Assembly: GCA_048937405.1 (NCBI GenBank)
Contig: JBHLNF010000002.1
Span: 384,001 to 448,000, forward strand
Source of the DNA: Promethearchaeota archaeon
Lineage (GTDB): Archaea; Asgardarchaeota; Lokiarchaeia; Sigyniarchaeales; SOKP01
Direction of reading: 5' to 3'
DNA: 64,000 bases
A program made the position numbers and the translations under genes. Below the pieces are notes generated by a model, which was not told the origin of the DNA, did no database searches, and saw nothing but the letters and a program-made list of their open reading frames with translations. This document shows positions 14,605-45,115 of this stretch, in pieces; positions within the stretch are counted from its first letter, which is position 1; every line of letters begins with the position of its first letter.

Positions 14605-16365
14605 ATGAACGTTGAAGAGATAAGAAAGATCTTATGGTTAAGTGGATTGAAAAATTCAGTTAAATTCAATGGAAAACCAAACAAAAAAGCAATAATGGGA
14701 AAACTCATGGCTACGAGATCTGACTTAAGATCAGAAACTAAAATAATTTTACCATTATTAGAGCAAATTATTGGAGAAATTTTGAAATTAACTATAGATC
14801 AACAGACGGAACAGTTATTAAAATTGGATCCACATGCTTTGGATAAAGAAGTAAAAAGGAAAGAAACAAAAGAATTACCAGAATTACCAAATATTTCAAA
14901 TTACAAAAAAGTAATTATGCGTTTAGCACCTTATCCTAGTGGTGCATTGCATATTGGAAATGCTAGAATGATTGTATTAAATGATGAATATGTGAAAAAA
15001 TATAATGGAGAACTTATTTTATTTTATGATGATACAATTGGAAGCCCAAAATCATTGCGTGATAGTCCCAAAGCTAAATATGTATTACCTCAAGCTTACG
15101 ATTTAATTAAGGAAGGTTTAGATTGGCTAGGAGTAAAGTATAGTAAAATATATTATAAAAGTGAACGTTTAGAAATATTTTATGAGTATTGTGAAAAACT
15201 AATTAAGGACAGTATCGCTTATGTTTGTTTTTGTCCTGCAGATAAATTTAGGGAAGAATTCAAAAAAAATAAGAAAGCTTGCCCACATAGAACCAATTCG
15301 ATTGAAACGAACTTAGAACAATGGCAAAACATGCTTAATGGGGTATATCATGAGGGTGAAGCAGTTGTGAGATTAAAAACTGGAATGGATCAAAAAAATC
15401 CAGCCCTACGAGACCAAATAATTATGAGAATTTCTGAAGCAGAACATCCAAGAGTAGGGAGTAAGTATGTAGTATGGCCTATGCTAGAGTATAGTTGGGC
15501 TATTGATGATTTCCTTATTGGGGCTTCTCATATATTGAGAGGAATAGATTTAGTAAAGGAAGGTCTTATTGAAGAGTTTATTTGGGATCATTTTGGTTGG
15601 AAAAAAGCGGAATTACTTTATTATGGAAGAATAAATTTTTCTGATATGAAATTAAGTAAAACAAAATCAAGAAATAATATCCAAAGTGGAAAATATGAAG
15701 GATGGGATGATCCAAGAACATGGAGCTTGCAATCTCTAAAAAAACGGGGAATTAGGCCGGAAGCATTGCGAGAAACGCTATTAGATCTTGGTATGTCTCA
15801 ATCTGGAATAAGATTCTCTGTAAATTGGCTATATTCAAAAAATCAGGAAATAATAGATGAAATATCTAACCGTTATTTTTATGTAGAAGATCCAGTCATG
15901 CTAGTAATTGATAAAGTACCAGAAAAGAAATATATTGCCGAACCATTATTGCTTCCAACAGAGCCAAAAAAAGGAAAAAGGAAGATTAAATGTATAACAA
16001 ATCAAAATCAATTAATTTTACTAATTTCTTTAGTGGATGCTAAAACATTAGAAAAAGATGTAATTATACGGTTAAAGGATCTGATAAATGTCAAAGTGAA
16101 CTCTATTAGCTTAAAAAGTGAAAAAATATATGCTACTTATGAAAGTAAAGAGTTAAACCGAGAATTTCAAATTATTCATTGGGTTCCTCAAGATGAAAAT
16201 ATAAAAGTCTCAATCCTAAAACCTAATGGGACATTATCAAAAGGCTTTGGAGAGATTGAGCTAATAAAAATACCCTTGGAAAAAACAATTCAGTTTGAAC
16301 GCTATGGATTTGTAAATCCTGTTGAAAGGGAAAAAAATCATCTTTACTGTTATTTTACTCACTAA
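14605..16365 (+). CDS. gltX: Glutamate--tRNA ligase (archaeal type)
   Basis: RLAPYPSGALHIGN (HIGH), SHILRGID, LSKT, GWDDPR, QFERYGF. Confidence 0.95.
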   Translation: MNVEEIRKILWLSGLKNSVKFNGKPNKKAIMGKLMATRSDLRSETKIILPLLEQIIGEILKLTIDQQTEQLLKLDPHALDKEVKRKETKELPELPNISNYKKVIMRLAPYPSGALHIGNARMIVLNDEYVKKYNGELILFYDDTIGSPKSLRDSPKAKYVLPQAYDLIKEGLDWLGVKYSKIYYKSERLEIFYEYCEKLIKDSIAYVCFCPADKFREEFKKNKKACPHRTNSIETNLEQWQNMLNGVYHEGEAVVRLKTGMDQKNPALRDQIIMRISEAEHPRVGSKYVVWPMLEYSWAIDDFLIGASHILRGIDLVKEGLIEEFIWDHFGWKKAELLYYGRINFSDMKLSKTKSRNNIQSGKYEGWDDPRTWSLQSLKKRGIRPEALRETLLDLGMSQSGIRFSVNWLYSKNQEIIDEISNRYFYVEDPVMLVIDKVPEKKYIAEPLLLPTEPKKGKRKIKCITNQNQLILLISLVDAKTLEKDVIIRLKDLINVKVNSISLKSEKIYATYESKELNREFQIIHWVPQDENIKVSILKPNGTLSKGFGEIELIKIPLEKTIQFERYGFVNPVEREKNHLYCYFTH

Positions 16366-33217: not shown

Positions 33218-36200
33218 TCAATTAATTGTTTGTTCTTTATTTTTTTTTAGTACATAAAAGATTAAAATAAGAATTGTTAGGGTTATAGGCAACGCAATTA
33301 CGACGGGATTATTTCCACTAAAAAGATAAAAATAATAGGTGATAGTAATAATAGAAGCAAATAAAGCGATTACACTTCCATACTGACTAGCCAAATTTTT
33401 CAGATGACGTAACATCATATTTAATTTATAATTAGTGCTTTTTATAACTTCTAATTCAGTTTCATCTAATTCATCTAAAACTTCGGGATTTTCGAAATAA
33501 ATAGCAATTCGAGGATCAAACTTGCCTTCTAATTCTCCTGAACTAATTAAAAATAGTAAATGGTCTTGAATATTTTGTTTTTTTATTTTTAATTCATTGT
33601 TTAAAAAACCAACTGTCAAATATTCATTCGCTACAGCTTTTATTGTCATTTTTATATATGATTTTAAAATCAAACGTTCCAACGCTTTTACTTTTTCGTT
33701 TAAAATCTCAAAATATTCCTCAATAAATTTATTAAAATCATCTAAAACGAATTTAGATATTTGTAAAAAGTTTTTTGACTTTTTAGAAAAATCCTTAATG
33801 GTATTTTCAATGTGTTTTTTAACTTCTTTTATCTCTAATTCAATATTCTTAGCTCGTTTTTGGATGAGATAATTACATTTCTTGAATTCTTTAATTTCAA
33901 TATTATCTTCTACTTTCCTTTCCAAATTACCTAGTAATTGACTCAAATGAATTTTTTTATTATTTATTATTATTATTAATTGTTCACGGAATGATTCATT
34001 CTTCAATGAAGTTATCTTATCAGTAATTTTGTGAACTTTATTATCAAATTCATTACTATAAGAATTTTTCGATCTCACATACAATTCTCTTATTTCAGGA
34101 ATTAGCTTATTTAAATCCTCAGTTGCATTCAAAACTGATTTTATTTGTTCCTCAACCTTATTTTGAACTTTTTTGAAATTTTCATTAATTAAATGCTTTT
34201 CAGTTTCATAAATGTCTTGAATTTTTATATAATTATCATAGTTTTCCATCCTTCTGAAAACTTTATTACTAAACTCTCTTATTTCATTATTGAGATTATT
34301 GAATTGTTTTTCAAGGTAATTATGCATTTTATTAAATAAGTTAAGACTACTTTTTATATCACTAATAGCAATTCTGTCATTTTCTAAAATTGATTCAAAA
34401 TATTTTTTGGTTTCAATGAATTCGGTTCTTTCTTGGAGAATTTTAAGATCTCTTGCTTTTTCATTGAACTTATTAGGGAGAAAATCATCGAAGATATTTA
34501 ATTCATTAATTCTATTTTGAAGCTCTAACATATTTACATTTAAGGTTCTATTCCTTATACTTGAATCATATAGTGCTAAAATTTTGCCAATTCTCTCTCT
34601 ATTTAATTTTAATAAATGATTATCCACATAATTTTTAAGATCTTTGTTTAAATAATAATAATCTGTGTACACTAAAATGGATTTTTCATCCTCATTAAGT
34701 TCTGCATTCATTTTTGAAAGATCTATCATATCCTTTAATCTACTGATGAGGACTTTGCATGATAATTTTACTTCATTTTTTAAATCATCTAATTTAATGT
34801 AATTTGTTTTCTTCTCAATTGCTATTATGTTTACGCTATTTGAAATTACTTTATTAATATATTCATCTTTTAAAATAGAAAGATCATCGTTAAAAGATTC
34901 AATGAAATTTTCCCATTGAATTATACTTAATTCTGACTGTTCCTTAAAATTCTCAATATTTTTTGTACATTCATTTATTTTTTTTAAATATAACTTTTTT
35001 GATTTAGTGAATTGACTCTGAATATGATCAAATTCTTTATTAATCTGGTCAATTTTCAAATTATCAGAATGATCAAAATTATTTTTGATTATTTTTAGTT
35101 GAGATTTCAAATTTGAAATTTCTTGTGAAACAAAATTATCAAAATCTTCAATTTTAGATTTATTTCTCTCCTCAGCTATAAATTTTTTTAACGTTTTAAC
35201 CTGATTGGCAATTAATTCAATTACTTCAGCTTCTAATTCTTCTAAAATCTCCTGTAAATGGCGATAAAGTAAATAAAGTTTTTGTTTCTTTCGTATCTCT
35301 CGTTTTACAATAGACTGAATCTCTTTGATTTCAGCTATTTTCTCTTTCATCAAGAGATCATATTCTCTCTTGGTGAAATTATAAGCATCTTGAAAATCAT
35401 TTGCTTTTATTTTATTTTTTGCTTTTTCTCCAATTTCTAATATTTCTGCTTTTATCTGTTTACTAACGTCCTCTATTTTTTGAAGATTTATGTTGAAAAA
35501 TTGAAATCCTTTGATATAGAAATCAAATTCAGTATTAAATTGTTCTTTAATTTTTATCCAATTTTCAATTATTTTTTTATGTTTTTTAACAATTTTCTTT
35601 TCCTTAACTGTAATCTGTTGAGAAACACCATATATTATATGATCATATTTTCTTACATTTTGAGAAAGTTGGTCCAAACTTTGAATAATAAGATTTAATT
35701 CTACCTCGTCATATTTCTTTTCAAGAATCTCGTTAAATTGTTTCTTAAATAAATCTAATTTTTTTATTAAGTCCTCCTCTAAAACGTCTATTTTTTCATT
35801 TAAAGTCTCTAATAAACTAGATAAATTTCTTAATTCTTCTTTTTCTTGAATTTTACCTTTTAGATATGACTCAACTTCTGATAATTTCTTCTGTAAAACA
35901 GAATATTCTTTTTTCCATTGAGCTATTTCTGAACCTAAACTTGCTTGTATATTAATATATTTAAGAATCTCATTAAAAGAACCTTCAATATTCTCATTTA
36001 AAAAGTCTGCTTCCATTAAAGCATCACGTAGAATAAATTTTAAGCGTTCTTTTGCATAATTAGTCTCATTTATTACAAGATAACTTTCAATTTCTTCTCG
36101 AATTTGAGAACTGATATTTTTTAGCTTCAAAGTCATATTATAGATATCATTCTTGATATCATCTAGTTTCTCTTTTTCTTCATATAGTCTTTCTGTATTT

Positions 36201-37630
36201 AGATCCACATCAGAAATAATAATCTTTTTCAATAGATATTTTAAATAAAATAAATATTTAGTCCTAAATCCTAAAAATGATTTTTTAGTTCTTATAGCAC
36301 CAATGAATAATTTTTTATTTACCATATCCTTTATTGTAGGGAAAATATCTTCTTTTAATTTTAAAGGTTCTAAATGCTCTGTTTTATGTTTTTTGAAAAG
36401 TTCAGAAAGGGATATTATACTATTGTTATTCAATTTATTATAAAAATTTTTAAAGAATTCTTTCTTGCCATAACTGAAATTACTGATATAATTCTTGAAT
36501 TCAATCTCATTATCTAAAATCTGTAATTTAAAATTATAATTGAGATTAATGTATAAAATAAGTTCATCTATATATTCTACTAATCCAAAAGTCGACTTTA
36601 ATTGATTTATATCAACATACTTTTCTTTTTCAAGTTGTCTGAATAAAACCCTTTCAATTTCATCACTAAATTTTTTCCAAACGATAGATAAAAGAATTAT
36701 TAATTTTGAAGTTTCATTTAATATTTCAGAATTCCAATTCTCTGGATTCTTTAATATTTCTTTTAATTTTTGAGTAATAAAGGAATAAATTCCTGCAGGA
36801 TTATAATCCAATAACCATGAATATAATTCAAGGATATAAACTAACCAGAAAGTGATATCAACGTTATCATCCTGATTAAAACTGAAACCACCATTTTCTT
36901 TCTGAAGCTGTTGAAGTAATTGAAGTTCTTTATCTTTAACCTCCATATCCAAATCTAAATATTTAAGGCAAAGTAATCTAAAAATTAACGAGGAATCTTT
37001 TTTCTTTTCTCCCGTATATGTACGGAACTGCTCTCTATTTAAACGGACATCCACTCCAAGGATTGTAAATATTTCCATCACATAAAATAACAATTTTGAC
37101 GTAGAAATATTTCTACAAATTTCACAATCTTTGGCTTGGCAATGTATAAACTTATTCCCCTTTTTCAGTGATAAAATAAAATTTCTAATTTGTTCTTTTA
37201 CTTGAGTTCTTCCTTCGGATAACATGTATTGATTTAATAAACCTGCAGTTTTTAAACAGGACAGCGCAAAGAATGTAGAACAAATATCAGGATCATTATT
37301 AGAATGGGGAGTAGAAATAAATCCTATTTTATTATCCAGCTGAACTTCACAATTTTTAATAAAAGAAAAAATTTCATCCCTATTTTTCCTTTTTTCTAGT
37401 TTTAAATATTTCCGAAGCAATAGTAACCAAAAGACATTTTCAAGATTTAGATGCGATGTATTTATAAATTTTTGATTAAAATGTTCATAGAATTCAATTA
37501 TTTTATTATATTCACTATAATAAAAAATTAGAATATCTCTTCGTTTAATATTTATAAAAGATTTAAATGGTTCTTTTTTAAATTTTGTTATGTAAGGATA
37601 TGCAAATTTCTCTTCGTACGCATTGCTCAA
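33218..37630 (-). CDS. Large protein: prenyltransferase-beta-like repeats + PCI-like winged helices + coiled coils + C-terminal TM hairpin
   Basis: PDICSTFFALSCL, LQKENGGFS, DITFWLVYIL; LKIKKQNIQDHLLFLISSGELEGKFD; heptad-rich middle; two terminal hydrophobic helices. Confidence 0.7.
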   Translation of the reverse strand: MSNAYEEKFAYPYITKFKKEPFKSFINIKRRDILIFYYSEYNKIIEFYEHFNQKFINTSHLNLENVFWLLLLRKYLKLEKRKNRDEIFSFIKNCEVQLDNKIGFISTPHSNNDPDICSTFFALSCLKTAGLLNQYMLSEGRTQVKEQIRNFILSLKKGNKFIHCQAKDCEICRNISTSKLLFYVMEIFTILGVDVRLNREQFRTYTGEKKKDSSLIFRLLCLKYLDLDMEVKDKELQLLQQLQKENGGFSFNQDDNVDITFWLVYILELYSWLLDYNPAGIYSFITQKLKEILKNPENWNSEILNETSKLIILLSIVWKKFSDEIERVLFRQLEKEKYVDINQLKSTFGLVEYIDELILYINLNYNFKLQILDNEIEFKNYISNFSYGKKEFFKNFYNKLNNNSIISLSELFKKHKTEHLEPLKLKEDIFPTIKDMVNKKLFIGAIRTKKSFLGFRTKYLFYLKYLLKKIIISDVDLNTERLYEEKEKLDDIKNDIYNMTLKLKNISSQIREEIESYLVINETNYAKERLKFILRDALMEADFLNENIEGSFNEILKYINIQASLGSEIAQWKKEYSVLQKKLSEVESYLKGKIQEKEELRNLSSLLETLNEKIDVLEEDLIKKLDLFKKQFNEILEKKYDEVELNLIIQSLDQLSQNVRKYDHIIYGVSQQITVKEKKIVKKHKKIIENWIKIKEQFNTEFDFYIKGFQFFNINLQKIEDVSKQIKAEILEIGEKAKNKIKANDFQDAYNFTKREYDLLMKEKIAEIKEIQSIVKREIRKKQKLYLLYRHLQEILEELEAEVIELIANQVKTLKKFIAEERNKSKIEDFDNFVSQEISNLKSQLKIIKNNFDHSDNLKIDQINKEFDHIQSQFTKSKKLYLKKINECTKNIENFKEQSELSIIQWENFIESFNDDLSILKDEYINKVISNSVNIIAIEKKTNYIKLDDLKNEVKLSCKVLISRLKDMIDLSKMNAELNEDEKSILVYTDYYYLNKDLKNYVDNHLLKLNRERIGKILALYDSSIRNRTLNVNMLELQNRINELNIFDDFLPNKFNEKARDLKILQERTEFIETKKYFESILENDRIAISDIKSSLNLFNKMHNYLEKQFNNLNNEIREFSNKVFRRMENYDNYIKIQDIYETEKHLINENFKKVQNKVEEQIKSVLNATEDLNKLIPEIRELYVRSKNSYSNEFDNKVHKITDKITSLKNESFREQLIIIINNKKIHLSQLLGNLERKVEDNIEIKEFKKCNYLIQKRAKNIELEIKEVKKHIENTIKDFSKKSKNFLQISKFVLDDFNKFIEEYFEILNEKVKALERLILKSYIKMTIKAVANEYLTVGFLNNELKIKKQNIQDHLLFLISSGELEGKFDPRIAIYFENPEVLDELDETELEVIKSTNYKLNMMLRHLKNLASQYGSVIALFASIITITYYFYLFSGNNPVVIALPITLTILILIFYVLKKNKEQTIN

Positions 37631-38622: not shown

Positions 38623-40050
38623 TTATTTTTTGTCTTTTGGTAAATGGCCTATCTCTTCTCTAATAGATGGGGTTAAAAAGTCTTTTTCCGTAGGCTTATT
38701 TAATATCTCTAAAAGATTATATTCTGTGATCATTTGAAGGATTCCCAGAACTTTCATACCATGCTCGTACATATCGTTCGCATCGGACAAATTCCTCCAA
38801 CAAAATGGACACTCAGTTGTTAAAATATCCGCTCCAACAGCATTCGCTTCATCACATCGTAAACTTGCTGTTTTAAGTGAAAATTCAGGATATCCTGCCC
38901 TTACTCCACCTCCAGCTCCGCAACACATACTATCAATTTTTATTCTGTACATCTCTTTGAATACTAAACCTACATCCTCCTCAAGTTTTCTAAGAATGAT
39001 ACGTGGAACTTCATACCATGCTTCGATTGCTTTATCAATCGCTCGATGTTCTATTATAAGCTTCGTTGATTCTTTTATCATTTCTTGCTCCATATCGATA
39101 GCAAAATGTCTGCCTGTATGACAAGGATCATGATAAGTAACAACTTTTCCTTTCAATTCTTTGTTTGGTTTGAATTTGATTTTCTCTTGTTGCACTAATC
39201 TTGCAACAAGTTCAAATGCGTGTTGTGTTTTAAATGGAAGCTTCTCATCCTCACCCATCCATTTTGGATAATCGATAGTAAAAGTTCTATAACAACCTGC
39301 ACAACTAAAATAGACCATTTTGACATTCTTGAAAGCTTCGAGATTTTTTCTCATTAATTCCTGAGCGGTATCAACTGCCCCAATTCTAAAGAATGGACTT
39401 CCACAACATACTTCATCATCAACTAAGGTAAAATTCATCCCTAATTGCTCAAATAATTTAGCAGTTGCAATTGCTACTTCTACTTGACGATAACTAGCTG
39501 TACATCCAACGTAATAGGCAATTTTTGCATCCTTATTATCAATAAACTTTTCTAGTCCTGCATCCTTCGCCCATTTCATTCTTTCACTAGCAGCTCCACC
39601 ATATGGATTATTTCTTTCTTTGACTAATTTATCCACTACCTCATGTTTATCGATCATCGGTATACCAGCTTCTATACATGCTGCCCTCAATGATTCAATG
39701 ATATCAACAGTAGGAACCTTATTTTCACATTGCGCTGAGCATTGACCACATGTTATACAGGGTAAAAATACATCTCGCACTTCTTCACTAAATTCTAAAT
39801 CACCACTTAAAATCGAGCGAGCAATCCACATTTTACCGGCATTCCAGAAAGCTTCCCATCCATATTCTATTCCCGCAGGACATGCATCTACCATTCCTTC
39901 ATAAAGAACCGTTCCTTGCTTTCCTGCAAATTCTCCTATTCCCTCCCTATCAGGTTCATTCGAATAAGCAAATCTACATGCTTTACAATGAATACATTTA
40001 TAAACCTCTTTTTTTAATTCTTCTAATCTTTCCATTCCTGTTTTTGCCAT
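38623..40050 (-). CDS. Fe-S oxidoreductase, GlcF/HdrD-like (two [4Fe-4S] motifs + two CCG domains)
   Basis: CIHCKAC, CITCGQCSAQC, YYVGC, CCGSP, YHDPCH, CCGAGGG, ECPFC. Confidence 0.9.
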   Translation of the reverse strand: MAKTGMERLEELKKEVYKCIHCKACRFAYSNEPDREGIGEFAGKQGTVLYEGMVDACPAGIEYGWEAFWNAGKMWIARSILSGDLEFSEEVRDVFLPCITCGQCSAQCENKVPTVDIIESLRAACIEAGIPMIDKHEVVDKLVKERNNPYGGAASERMKWAKDAGLEKFIDNKDAKIAYYVGCTASYRQVEVAIATAKLFEQLGMNFTLVDDEVCCGSPFFRIGAVDTAQELMRKNLEAFKNVKMVYFSCAGCYRTFTIDYPKWMGEDEKLPFKTQHAFELVARLVQQEKIKFKPNKELKGKVVTYHDPCHTGRHFAIDMEQEMIKESTKLIIEHRAIDKAIEAWYEVPRIILRKLEEDVGLVFKEMYRIKIDSMCCGAGGGVRAGYPEFSLKTASLRCDEANAVGADILTTECPFCWRNLSDANDMYEHGMKVLGILQMITEYNLLEILNKPTEKDFLTPSIREEIGHLPKDKK

Positions 40051-40071
40051 TTTTTTATCAACCTCCTTTCT

Positions 40072-41562
40072 TTATGGAAGAGCAAGTCTCCCTGGGTGCA
40101 TTATCATATTTGGATCAACAAGCTTTTTAAAAGCCCTTAGATATTTCCAATACATTCCTGCTTGATAATACGCTTGTATATGAATGTATGGGTCTGGTCT
40201 ATAATTTAACCAACCTTGTTTTAACGCGTATTCTGTAGTCTCTCTATTTAATTCTTGAACTCTTTCGAAATCTGACTGTTTAGTGGAGTCAAAACCAATT
40301 ATAGGCATACATATCGCTTGTCTGCAACGCTCAATACTAGCTACCCAAATTGTAGGGGGAAGACCATGTTTCTCCGCCGCTTTTATATACATATCGCAAA
40401 AGTGAGCGCATTCATTCCATGGTGTATACCATGTAATAAAGAGAAAACCAGCTTCCCATAAACTATATGAAATTGCTAGTTTATTTGGCTTTTTCATTCG
40501 ACTTGCTATTTGTTTAGGATGTAATTCTTGTTTTACAAGAGCATCAGGATCTTTTGCTCGCTTTTTAAAATCTTCTGCTTGTTTGTCGATAGTCTCAATT
40601 ACATGCTCCAATTCGCTTTTTTCTTGAGCCCAAATCTCCCAATTCATCCACCATGGTGCAACTCCAAGTTCCTTATAGAATTCATAATCATGTGGGACTT
40701 TATCTTTTGGCCAGCGAGTCATAACTAAAGGATAATTTCCTCCCTGAACCATTACAGTATGATGAGCAATTCCAAACTCTTTTTTACCAACTTCAAGAGT
40801 TAAGTCTTGCATATCATAAGGATTCGACATACACCAGACAACTACAGTTTTATGTTTTGGGTGGGGATAAATTTTCACAGCAGCTTTAGTAATAACACCC
40901 ATAGACCCTTGAGAACCCATTAAATAACTCCACATATCAGGACCTAAACCATATTTATAAAATGGTTTAGCAAAAGGAAGTGCCCAAGATCCAGTTCGTA
41001 CTACATCTCCATTAGGGAAAACAATTTCTCCACACATAAAATTATCTCCCTGTGGACCAACTGAAGACGTATATAAAGAGAATCCCCGATCAATTGCATC
41101 TCCCATAACTGTCGCTGCTGGAGGTGCACCATCAGGAATAGGGGGTGCCCAATCTGGGTGGTTTTTATTCATATAAGCCCAGAGTTCCCCATTAGTAACT
41201 CCCGGTTCTATAATACAATATCGATTTTCCTCATCGATTTCAATGATCCTTTTCATTCTTCCTAAATCAAGAACAACTCCACCAGGTCTTATTGTAGGGC
41301 ATGCAAATCCTCCAGATAACCCACCGGAGATAGGACTTACAGGGATCTTTTCAGCAGAACAATAAATCAATATTTTGCGTATCTCCTCGACATATTTCGG
41401 TCTAATAACGATATTAGGAATCTGTGACTCTAATCCCATAACTGATTTTGCCAAATAACCCGCAGTAATTGCCTTGTTGTTTGTAGCAAATTCTTTACCG
41501 ACAATACCAATCATAGCTTCTAAATCTTTTTCATCTGGTAATTTATAGCTCATATTTTCCAA
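40072..41562 (-). CDS. FAD-binding oxidoreductase (GlcD/VAO family)
   Basis: GGVVLDLGRM, EPGVT, GSQGSMGVITK, C-terminal DPNMIMHPG; operonic with the GlcF-like gene; true start probably MSYKLP. Confidence 0.9.
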   Translation of the reverse strand: MENMSYKLPDEKDLEAMIGIVGKEFATNNKAITAGYLAKSVMGLESQIPNIVIRPKYVEEIRKILIYCSAEKIPVSPISGGLSGGFACPTIRPGGVVLDLGRMKRIIEIDEENRYCIIEPGVTNGELWAYMNKNHPDWAPPIPDGAPPAATVMGDAIDRGFSLYTSSVGPQGDNFMCGEIVFPNGDVVRTGSWALPFAKPFYKYGLGPDMWSYLMGSQGSMGVITKAAVKIYPHPKHKTVVVWCMSNPYDMQDLTLEVGKKEFGIAHHTVMVQGGNYPLVMTRWPKDKVPHDYEFYKELGVAPWWMNWEIWAQEKSELEHVIETIDKQAEDFKKRAKDPDALVKQELHPKQIASRMKKPNKLAISYSLWEAGFLFITWYTPWNECAHFCDMYIKAAEKHGLPPTIWVASIERCRQAICMPIIGFDSTKQSDFERVQELNRETTEYALKQGWLNYRPDPYIHIQAYYQAGMYWKYLRAFKKLVDPNMIMHPGRLALP

Positions 41563-43369: not shown

Positions 43370-45115
43370 TTATTTATAATCTTGTTCAAAAAATTCTTTA
43401 TAATCCTCTAAAGATGCTTTAGATCTTTTAAAACTGAAAAGATATTTACCGAATAATTCTATTAGGCGAATTATCATCTTGTTTGGGTTATCTTTTAGAA
43501 ATATTTTATACTTTTCATTTTTTCTCTCTTCTTGAATTTTGGCTACTTCATCAAACTTATATAGTTTCTCAATTAATCTCTCATCCGGATTATTTAATTC
43601 TATGGTAATAATTTCACCTGATTGAGGCAATTCTTCAATTAATTTTTTGAATGTCCCAATTTTTGATTCTTTTTTACCAATGGTTAATATTTGATCACAA
43701 TTAGAAACAATTCCCTCTGGAGCATGAAAAATTAGAATTACATTAAATTTCTCTTTTATTTTTTCCATAGAATTATTGAATTTATCATATTCTAATCGAT
43801 CTAATATTTCAAAGGGAATAAAGAACATAATTATTGAAGGAAATTTTACCAAAGCTTTAGCAATTGAAAATAAAAGGAAATCTAAATGATTTAATTCTGA
43901 ACAACGCTTATTTTTCTTAAGTGATAATCCTGTAAGCTCTAAGGCATTTTTAATATACGATTTACCATGAATTAATCTCCTTGAAGGAGCTACGAATATT
44001 TCTCCAATTATCTCATCAATCCTAGGAACAAATCCCGCAGTTTTTAATATCAGTTGGAGTTTGGATTTTCGATTTTTCAGAATTCCTTTAATGTCAATTT
44101 TATATTTAATTGCTTTCTTGACTTTCATATTTAATATTTTTGATTCATGCGCCTGAGGTAATATTACTATTTTTTCTAAATCTTTTCTATTTAAAAATTG
44201 AACCTCTTTTCCAAAAATTTCAATATTCCCAAAAAAATCAGAAAAATTCCCAGCAATACTCCAAAAAAGATAAAATAAATCATATTTATGTTCTGTATCA
44301 GATAATAGTTCTTCATCATAAAGAATCCCTATTGATTTTCCTCTGTGAATCCTGAAAGAAACATTTTGTATTCCATTCTCTATAGAGACATTTTTCAATA
44401 TTAAGTGTTGAGAATTTGGTCCTAATCTATCTAATTTTAACCGTTTTTCGATTATATTACAAATTACCTCAATTATTTGATAAATGTGGGGGGGATTTAG
44501 TTCATTCCAATTTTTAATTATATCTTCTTTGATAAAATCTCTTTCACTTATAATCTTTGAAAGTGTTCTTGAAAAGGAAAATAATGGTATAAGAGGGTAT
44601 TTTTCAAAATTTATATGTAATTTAATCACAAAATAAGGAAAAGAAATTCTAAATTCTCTATTATAAGGATTACTATCAACCATATAATTTTCAAATCTCT
44701 CATCTAATAACTCAACTTCTCTATCAAGTAGCATTATATGATTTTGAAATTCCTTTCGAATGAGGTTCCTCATACGTTCGATGATTTTTTTAGGACTAAC
44801 TAGTCCATCCTCATCGAAATCAGGATCAACAATAATTTCATTAAAATCAAATTCATCTATAAGGGGTGTATAAATTTTTAATAAAGGTACTCCCTTGTCC
44901 TTTACATCCTGATTAGTAAAGAATAATACTTCGATAAAAGATTTTTTATAGATTAAATTTAAAATTGAAGCAATACCAAAAGTGTTTTCTCTATATGTCA
45001 TCCAAAAACGTCTAGAAAATCTGACAGCATCCAAAATTTTCAGTCTAAGACGCTCTAATTCAAGGTTTCTAGAGGGCTTAAAAAATTTAGATTTCTTCAA
45101 ATCCTTAGATTTCAT
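43370..45115 (-). CDS. RWD/UEV-like domain(s) fused to a catalytically degenerate ABC ATPase
   Basis: LDREVELL...IKLHINFEKYPLIPLFSF...IKNWNELNPPHIYQII; ABC fold cues (NVSFRIHRGKSIGI, GNIEIFGKEV, LPQ, IAKALV, CDQILTI) but Walker A, signature and Walker B are lost. Confidence 0.7.
   Translation of the reverse strand: MKSKDLKKSKFFKPSRNLELERLRLKILDAVRFSRRFWMTYRENTFGIASILNLIYKKSFIEVLFFTNQDVKDKGVPLLKIYTPLIDEFDFNEIIVDPDFDEDGLVSPKKIIERMRNLIRKEFQNHIMLLDREVELLDERFENYMVDSNPYNREFRISFPYFVIKLHINFEKYPLIPLFSFSRTLSKIISERDFIKEDIIKNWNELNPPHIYQIIEVICNIIEKRLKLDRLGPNSQHLILKNVSIENGIQNVSFRIHRGKSIGILYDEELLSDTEHKYDLFYLFWSIAGNFSDFFGNIEIFGKEVQFLNRKDLEKIVILPQAHESKILNMKVKKAIKYKIDIKGILKNRKSKLQLILKTAGFVPRIDEIIGEIFVAPSRRLIHGKSYIKNALELTGLSLKKNKRCSELNHLDFLLFSIAKALVKFPSIIMFFIPFEILDRLEYDKFNNSMEKIKEKFNVILIFHAPEGIVSNCDQILTIGKKESKIGTFKKLIEELPQSGEIITIELNNPDERLIEKLYKFDEVAKIQEERKNEKYKIFLKDNPNKMIIRLIELFGKYLFSFKRSKASLEDYKEFFEQDYK

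Follow-up and report, generated by a model that had tools for sequence, protein, structure and literature searches.

A conserved Asgard archaeal protein with tandem RWD/UEV-like domains and a nucleotide-dead ABC domain, probably an accessory subunit of an ABC-2 exporter module

Analysis of a stretch of 64,000 nucleotides (nt) of the Promethearchaeota archaeon contig JBHLNF010000002.1 (GCA_048937405.1, positions 384,001-448,000 of the forward strand), referred to here as the window, centred on the gene P0001 at window positions 43370-45115 on the minus strand, where all window features given below also lie. As a single open reading frame, it encodes a protein of 581 amino acids (aa) with tandem RWD/UEV-like domains and a degenerate nucleotide-binding domain (pseudo-NBD) of the ATP-binding cassette (ABC) type. 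In our view, P0001 is probably an accessory subunit, conserved but without enzymatic function, of a six-gene ABC-2 exporter module specific to Asgard archaea, in which the RWD pair would serve as a platform. The parts are of known kinds, a non-catalytic UBC fold and an ABC NBD; the fusion with a whole nucleotide-dead NBD appears to be a new variant, and literature searches found no description of an RWD/UEV-dead-NBD architecture.

The frame of P0001 contained no internal stop, in a window that is AT-rich (G + C about 27-29%). A homologue search returned 173 proteins, with 53-84% identity among the 120 matches listed. All homologues with a named source were Asgard, from metagenome-assembled genomes (MAGs) of Lokiarchaeia/Promethearchaeota and a few labelled Hod- or Hermodarchaeota, and their public labels read "hypothetical protein" or, mistakenly, ABC ATPase subunit. 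The family is small: a profile of its N-terminal half, searched against 1.84 billion cluster representatives, found 42 of them. In a survey of 60 genomes from the same GTDB family as the source genome, orthologous frames were stop-free in 40. Column identity across the parts of the protein was 65-82%. Pfam recognized no family on whole P0001 or on either half alone, an ESM Atlas feature search with P0001 gave no usable match, and the N-terminal half did not turn up in longer fusion proteins (1018-2905 aa), which is weak evidence. Because its homologues are this similar and its frame is intact in so many genomes, P0001 is, by sequence comparison, a conserved protein under purifying selection and not a decaying gene.

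A preliminary description, made from the sequence alone, had read P0001 as an E2-fold domain without catalytic cysteine fused to a dead ABC ATPase. The strings it quoted are all present, in the N-terminal half LDREVELL (residues 130-137), KYPLIP (172-177), W203 and PPHIYQII (208-215), and in the C-terminal half ILYDEELLSD (264-273), ELNHLD (407-412), IIMFFIP (428-434) and ASLEDY (567-572).

The N-terminal half was modelled with AlphaFold2 (AF2) on residues 1-238, using an alignment of 45 sequences. The model (predicted local distance difference test, pLDDT, 80) consisted of two alpha/beta domains with a 34-residue helix between them and uncertain inter-domain geometry (predicted template modelling score, pTM, 0.49). 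Structural comparison was performed with VIA-align against 48,161 representative chains. Domain 2 (residues 149-227; 44435-44671) was modelled separately on residues 104-238, with a pLDDT of 85, and comprised three predicted strands (152-158, 163-169 and 178-181), the YPLIP turn, short helices, W203, the residues P-P-H and a final helix (211-226). All 18 VIA-align matches that covered its alpha/beta part belonged to the UBC superfamily (Z 5.0-6.2), 17 of them with a root-mean-square deviation (rmsd) of 2-3 Å over 64-78 residues; the weakest, Spc24-Spc25, had an rmsd of 5.9 Å. The list was headed by UBE2W (Z 6.2), Mms2 (6.1), UBE2E1 (5.7, 22% identity) and BRE (5.7), with VPS37A, Ubc8, Knl1, the central domain of FANCL, LTN1, CENP-O and RWDD2 among the further matches, and the remaining rows covered the long helix alone.

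Domain 2 was also linked to known families through sequence profiles. The weaker matches of the N-terminal profile were multi-repeat proteins (library-wide E 2e-7 to 6e-4), among which P0161, P0164, P0165, P0166 and P0167 pass the Pfam cut-offs for UQ_con and/or RWD, and P0169 (E 6e-4) has RWD and BRE matches at sub-threshold level only. One further gene of the source genome was matched, P0176 (E 4.8e-7), and this same gene lies above the Pfam RWD cut-off. Comparing domain 2 and P0176, hhalign gave 88.8% (E 2.5e-6), with a strand, YPxxP, a second strand, N-W-N and P-x-H-I in register. In this alignment YPLIP (residues 173-177; 44585-44599), which corresponds to the YPxxP motif of E2/RWD domains, falls on YPKKP in repeat 2 of P0176; P174 and P177 were invariant in the 45 sequences and Y173 was near-invariant. 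As Pfam itself has no match on P0001, the profile link from P0001 to RWD/UQ_con is a transitive one; it is limited to domain 2. With the pLDDT of the separate model and the uniform match list, it supports the E2-fold domain proposed earlier.

Domain 1 (residues 14-104; 44804-45076) is the most conserved portion of P0001 (82% column identity). According to AF2, it is built of a helix (16-34), three strands (38-65), a short helix and a fourth strand (79-82). For residues of about 14-135, VIA-align found the RWD domain of LTN1 (Z 7.0, 99 residues, 3.1 Å), the UEV-like domain of VPS37A (6.7), the RWD domain of GCN2 (6.6), the UEV domains of Vps23 (5.9) and Tsg101 (5.7), the RWD domains of RNF25 and RWDD1 (5.8-5.9) and many E2s. 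The large majority of matches to this domain were of the RWD/UEV/E2 type (Z 5-7.1), and a second comparison agreed. However, hhalign comparison of domain 1 with P0176 and with domain 2 was not significant (probability <1%), and at its YPxxP site only a degenerate G-V-P is found. The second, degenerate copy that had been suspected upstream of the E2-like pattern was thus recovered as a fold (Z 5-7 to RWD/UEV/E2) but not as a sequence repeat; domain 1 is UBC-like by predicted fold, and an internal duplication is not demonstrable by sequence.

Domain 1 ends in an acidic loop, D-P-D-F-D-E-D-G (residues 97-104; 44804-44827), in which P98 and G104 are invariant and D99, D101 and D103 near-invariant (invariant in one set of 15 sequences). 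The loop resembles a DxDxDG calcium-binding loop. Searched against the PDB, the profile of the N-terminal half returned only non-significant matches, of calmodulin EF-hand 4 to this loop (E 0.15-2.6). The connecting helix follows (residues 108-141; 44693-44794), and in the AF2 model its C-terminal part, LDREVELL, is helix 1 of domain 2.

With neither N-terminal model did Foldseek retrieve a PDB chain at E ≤ 0.001. For residues 1-238 its top rows were FANCL (6.5e-3), CENP-O, Knl1, BRE, UBE2L3 and UFC1, FANCL and BRE being among the folds named for comparison in the preliminary description. At the head of an ESM Atlas shape search stood two clusters, one of CBASS E2s and one labelled Asgard "RWD/UQ_con". 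Weak structural matches to actin capping protein alpha, SycE, IscU and YbjN were set aside, as they did not recur and had no sequence support. Since the weak match lists are uniform, VIA-align agrees and domain 2 has a sequence link, the assignment of the N-terminal ~230 residues as two tandem UBC-fold (RWD/UEV-type) domains is supported at the level of the models. The alignment showed no conserved cysteine and no HPN (His-Pro-Asn) in residues 1-238, and both domains are therefore predicted to be non-catalytic; C219 is present in 69% of sequences, but lies within the last helix, away from the position of the E2 active site. In the genus g6 (e.g., G138, G209 and G215), where the proteins are of about 619 aa, like P0139, the N-terminal profile covered its positions 3-175 only, and the C-terminal part of domain 2 therefore seems to be diverged or replaced there.

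The C-terminal half was examined with a profile of residues 232-581 built from 31 family members. This profile matched 265 solved ABC NBD chains in the PDB, the best being 1vpl_A (E 1.3e-14, profile positions 17-237), and hhalign aligned it with the neighbouring ATPase P0004 over 247 columns (97.2%, E 3.2e-11). NCBIfam GldA matched P0001 at residues 385-571 (E 6.3e-8), BLASTP of P0001 against P0004 gave 2e-4, and Pfam ABC_tran (PF00005) remained below its cut-off. By homology, residues 232-581 are a true ABC NBD. Its core spans residues 236-495 (43631-44410), as placed by the PDB profile, hhalign and GldA, and carries in the Loki-type clade an insertion of 36 residues in the helical subdomain. 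The DrrA/GldA-type regulatory domain behind it (residues 496-575; 43391-43630) is well conserved, including an EERKNEKYK block and ASLEDY, in agreement with the earlier statement that this domain was kept. A distant relative, P0157, gave a weak DrrA1-3_C match.

Motif positions in the pseudo-NBD were set by alignment with both canonical ATPases of the operon, P0004 and the NBD of P0002, and the three strings previously read as dead motifs fell exactly at these positions. At the Walker A position (44297-44326), where P0004 has GISGAGKTT and P0002 GESGAGKST, P0001 has an acidic stretch, ILYDEELLSD, with Y-D-E-E-L-L-S-D facing the motif; across the family this site is acidic and variable, never GxxGxGK[ST]. 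The signature, MSGGE in P0004 and LSGGQ in P0002, is replaced by LNHLD (within ELNHLD, 43880-43897), and by LTPLE, LSNAE and similar strings in relatives. At Walker B and the catalytic glutamate (hhhhDEP; VLFLDEP and FLILDEP in the neighbours), P0001 reads IIMFFIP (43814-43834), with both Asp and Glu gone; one distant member only (P0162) retains the Glu, and no member has Asp and Glu together. A pattern check of the 42 family representatives found no Walker A, signature or Walker B motif in any of them. Alignment of orthologues located a Q-loop remnant, ILPQA (44150-44164), in which P320 is invariant in close orthologues and the Q-loop Gln (Q or E) is present in part of the Loki-type clade, and an H-loop position, IFHAP (43718-43732), with His464 near-invariant in that clade; in the distant clade of the family P320, the Q-loop Gln and the H-loop His are all gone.

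The loss of the motifs extends to relatives that share only about 19-29% identity with P0001 in the pseudo-NBD. Because every member found lacks them down to this level, the degeneracy is, as judged from the alignments, old and has been maintained, and does not reflect recent decay; the members found included no orthologue with intact Walker motifs, which would have spoken for such decay. An NBD that lacks P-loop, signature and catalytic base is unable to use ATP or to complete the ATP site of a partner. P0001 should therefore neither bind nor hydrolyse ATP, nor should it complete a partner's site. Without ATP chemistry, it must be the shape and surfaces of the domain that selection preserves.

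P0001 is the fifth of six genes in a tightly packed row on the minus strand. It is preceded by two ABC-2 permeases, P0126 (50658-51812) and P0125 (49337-50626), by the canonical DrrA-type ABC ATPase P0004 (48314-49315) and by P0002 (45105-48308; 1067 aa), in which a transmembrane (TM) segment, about 650 aa of prenyltransferase-type alpha/alpha-toroid repeats and a second TM segment lead to a canonical ABC NBD. P0002 presents a toroid ectodomain of the prenyltransferase/terpene-cyclase type wired to a cytoplasmic ATPase. The start of P0001 overlaps the P0002 stop by 11 nt; the counterpart overlap in the related locus L003 is 4 nt. The sixth gene, P0003 (42536-43339; 267 aa), is the obligate neighbour of P0001 and encodes a longin-like N-terminal domain (beta-beta-alpha-beta-beta-beta-alpha, judged by eye) followed by about four TM helices. 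P0003 belongs to no Pfam family, its members with a named source are all Asgard, and it is better conserved than P0001 (57-87% identity in most members).

The gene order was kept in six of the seven contexts examined (two close relatives and four distant ones, among them a MAG labelled Hodarchaeota), even where the pseudo-NBD is about 19-29% identical, and in the distant loci the gene downstream of the P0001-type gene was a P0003 homologue (hhalign 99.9%). One distant member, on a different short contig (L004), has a P0001-type gene without the toroid-NBD gene. In the 60-genome survey the P0001-type domain was found in 40 genomes and the P0003-type protein in 41, with the same presence or absence in 59; the sole mismatch was a genome whose P0003 copy is severed at a contig end. 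Wherever contig and coordinates could be compared, both genes were adjacent on one contig. Neither type was found in 19 of the 60 genomes, including 6 of the 11 searched in the source genus (G000 counted), all at least 92% complete. The search thus did not recover the module from about a third of these related genomes; it is therefore apparently not essential and has a history of repeated gain or loss. Within a wider sample of 201 genomes of the phylum, strong matches were confined to the source's family; the distant members derived from metagenomes show that the range of the module within the Asgard lineages is wider.

Selection for shape, together with the operon evidence, therefore makes P0001 most probably a stoichiometric, non-enzymatic subunit. 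Its dead NBD may have been reused as a docking body that would hold the protein at the cytoplasmic face of the transporter, against a live NBD, its regulatory domain or the longin-4TM partner P0003. There the RWD pair would be displayed as a protein-binding platform which regulates or recruits and does not energise. A complex prediction of full-length P0001 with P0003 scored 0.00, a value obtained without controls that speaks neither for nor against binding. What the comparisons show are the domain identities, the lost motifs, the purifying conservation, the gene order and the strict co-occurrence; from these we infer where P0001 docks, with which partner, and that it regulates. Several points weigh against our interpretation. 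Three NBD-type chains for two permeases leave the place of P0001 undefined; the search for the operon came up empty in about one-third of the related genomes; and the structural Z-scores are modest (5-7), under the stand-alone safe level of the tool, with domain 1 lacking support at sequence level.

The surplus of NBD-type chains over the two permeases also fits a different role, the swap into the NBD dimer proposed in the preliminary description. Here P0001 would take the dimer position of a functional NBD (that of P0004 or P0002), and the resulting ATP-incompetent heterodimer would switch the exporter off under the control of whatever binds the RWD pair. Since the signature of P0001 is dead too, neither composite ATP site would be complete in such a heterodimer, so P0001 could act only as a brake or structural mimic. 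Conservation of the core NBD fold, the D-loop surroundings and the H-loop His in the Loki-type clade would suit such a decoy. However, Q-loop and H-loop are not retained in distant members, and the translational coupling of P0001 within the operon, by overlaps of 11 nt and, in L003, 4 nt, suggests a stoichiometric subunit rather than a regulated inhibitor. We therefore regard the decoy as unlikely.

Somewhat less probable still is the link to ubiquitin-like signalling that the preliminary description also raised. In this case a UBC-fold domain of P0001 would function as a UEV, binding ubiquitin or a ubiquitin-like modifier and coupling the exporter to ubiquitin-type tagging. The structural matches do include Mms2 and the UEV domains of Tsg101 and Vps23 solved with ubiquitin, and the source genome encodes ubiquitin-like proteins and two genuine E2s. 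These genes, however, are on other contigs or far from the operon, and no ubiquitin, E1, E2 or E3 gene was found in or adjoining the operon in the loci examined. Furthermore, matches to RWD, E2, FANCL and kinetochore proteins score as high as those to UEV domains, and RWD domains usually are protein-protein scaffolds (PMC6601020).

The linkage of P0001 and P0003 is the tightest, and the two could form a signalling unit of their own, a membrane platform of RWD and longin domains possibly for small GTPases, which merely travels with the exporter genes. The L004 context without toroid-NBD gene is consistent with this, as is an Arf/Ras-type GTPase gene a few kb downstream in the distant locus L012. 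On the other hand, in six of seven contexts the pair stands immediately behind the toroid-NBD gene, with the complete exporter ahead of it wherever the contig extends far enough upstream. That P0001 has kept its NBD and regulatory domain also speaks for contact with ABC components, and an independent unit is improbable. That P0001 is a decaying ABC ATPase gene or an annotation artefact, as the failure of Pfam to detect any domain might suggest, is hardly credible given full-length, stop-free orthologues in 40 of 60 related genomes, the 65-82% column identity and motif positions likewise substituted at deep divergence.

Comparing the accessory subunit proposed here with known systems, the closest by sequence were P0176 and its Asgard relatives (P0161 and P0164-P0167); domain 2 aligns with repeat 2 of P0176, and a catalytic cysteine is lacking on both sides. 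P0176 (contig 18 of the source genome, L006:700-2382, minus strand; 560 aa; Pfam UQ_con 41 bits, RWD 30 bits) consists of four E2/RWD-like repeats and a C-terminal Cys/His zinc finger. The repeats carry turns of the [FY]PxxxP type (FPNTPP, YPKKP, YPKLP and YPMKMP), and an evident catalytic Cys was seen in none of them. Unlike P0001, it combines four UBC-like repeats with a RING-like zinc finger, in a layout reminiscent of FANCL or RNF25, has no NBD and is encoded on another contig. Relatives of P0176 occur in many genomes of the source family.

Tandem non-catalytic UBC folds that serve as binding platforms are also found in FANCL (ELF, double-RWD and RING) and in the kinetochore proteins Knl1 and CENP-O/P. 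Across both P0001 domains, however, the rmsd to these proteins is about 17 Å, which means that there is no rigid-body match, and sequence identity is about 10%; moreover, P0001 lacks a RING and has no known coiled-coil dimerisation partner. UEV proteins (Tsg101/Vps23, Mms2 and VPS37A) and single RWD domains (GCN2, RWDD1, RNF25 and LTN1) share with P0001 the E2 fold without active-site cysteine (Z 5.5-7.0 over 70-120 residues), while domain 2 of P0001 is predicted to have three strands, not four.

On the transporter side, the DrrA/GldA-type ABC-2 ATPases (P0004, the NBD of P0002 and PDB entry 1vpl) have the NBD fold and the C-terminal regulatory domain in common with P0001; they differ in that P0001 has no ATP-handling motifs and that its Loki-type clade bears the 36-residue insertion. 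Asymmetric use of NBDs, with one of them impaired, is known from degenerate heterodimeric exporters. In BmrCD, PatAB, CydDC and MsRv1273c/72c both NBDs bind ATP and one composite site is impaired (PMC4046567, PMC9541285, PMC12038006). The NBD of P0001, in contrast, lacks Walker A, Walker B and signature alike, would contribute to neither site and has no transmembrane domain of its own.

The main interest of the P0001 architecture is for Asgard cell biology. Tromer et al. (PMC6601020) mention, for Asgard archaea, no more than the presence of E2s, a UEV-like homologue and an RWD-like domain. RWD/UEV and longin domains count as "eukaryotic signature" modules whose roles in Asgard archaea are almost entirely obscure, and here both are tied to one membrane machine by gene order and by strict co-occurrence at deep divergence. 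The module is a concrete, expressible system of six proteins that could serve to explore the pre-eukaryotic role of a non-catalytic E2 fold. P0001 is also an unusually clean case of an ABC NBD that has been stripped of all catalytic motifs and is still strongly selected, the fold probably acting as a structural adaptor. More speculatively, and with little probability in our view, the two RWD domains could form, together with the longin part of P0003, a eukaryote-type cytoplasmic scaffold (GATOR/SEA-like or FANCL-like) bolted to the exporter by a recycled, nucleotide-free NBD. If so, a prokaryotic ATPase fold would serve as a pure adaptor coupling export to GTPase- or ubiquitin-type signalling, and the assembly would be a possible precursor of eukaryotic RWD scaffolds.

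Among the public sequencing runs listed, there were no RNA data, only DNA runs from sediment, mangrove, soil and unspecified metagenomes. Some further genes were observed around the operon. Behind it, the window (38623-41562) and two relatives (L001, 11775-14824; L002, 6548-9554) carry genes for an FAD-binding oxidase (FAD_binding_4) and an Fe-S/CCG protein. In the distant loci these two do not follow the operon, and the arrangement may reflect no more than local synteny. A further protein, about 1470 aa long and weakly matching prenyltransferase repeats, is encoded less than 10 kb from the operon in the window (33218-37630) and in L002 (from 12327), the relative in L002 having about 53% identity. 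The Arf/Ras-type small GTPase gene of L012 is located at 15088-15576, about 4.5 kb downstream of this distant copy of the operon.

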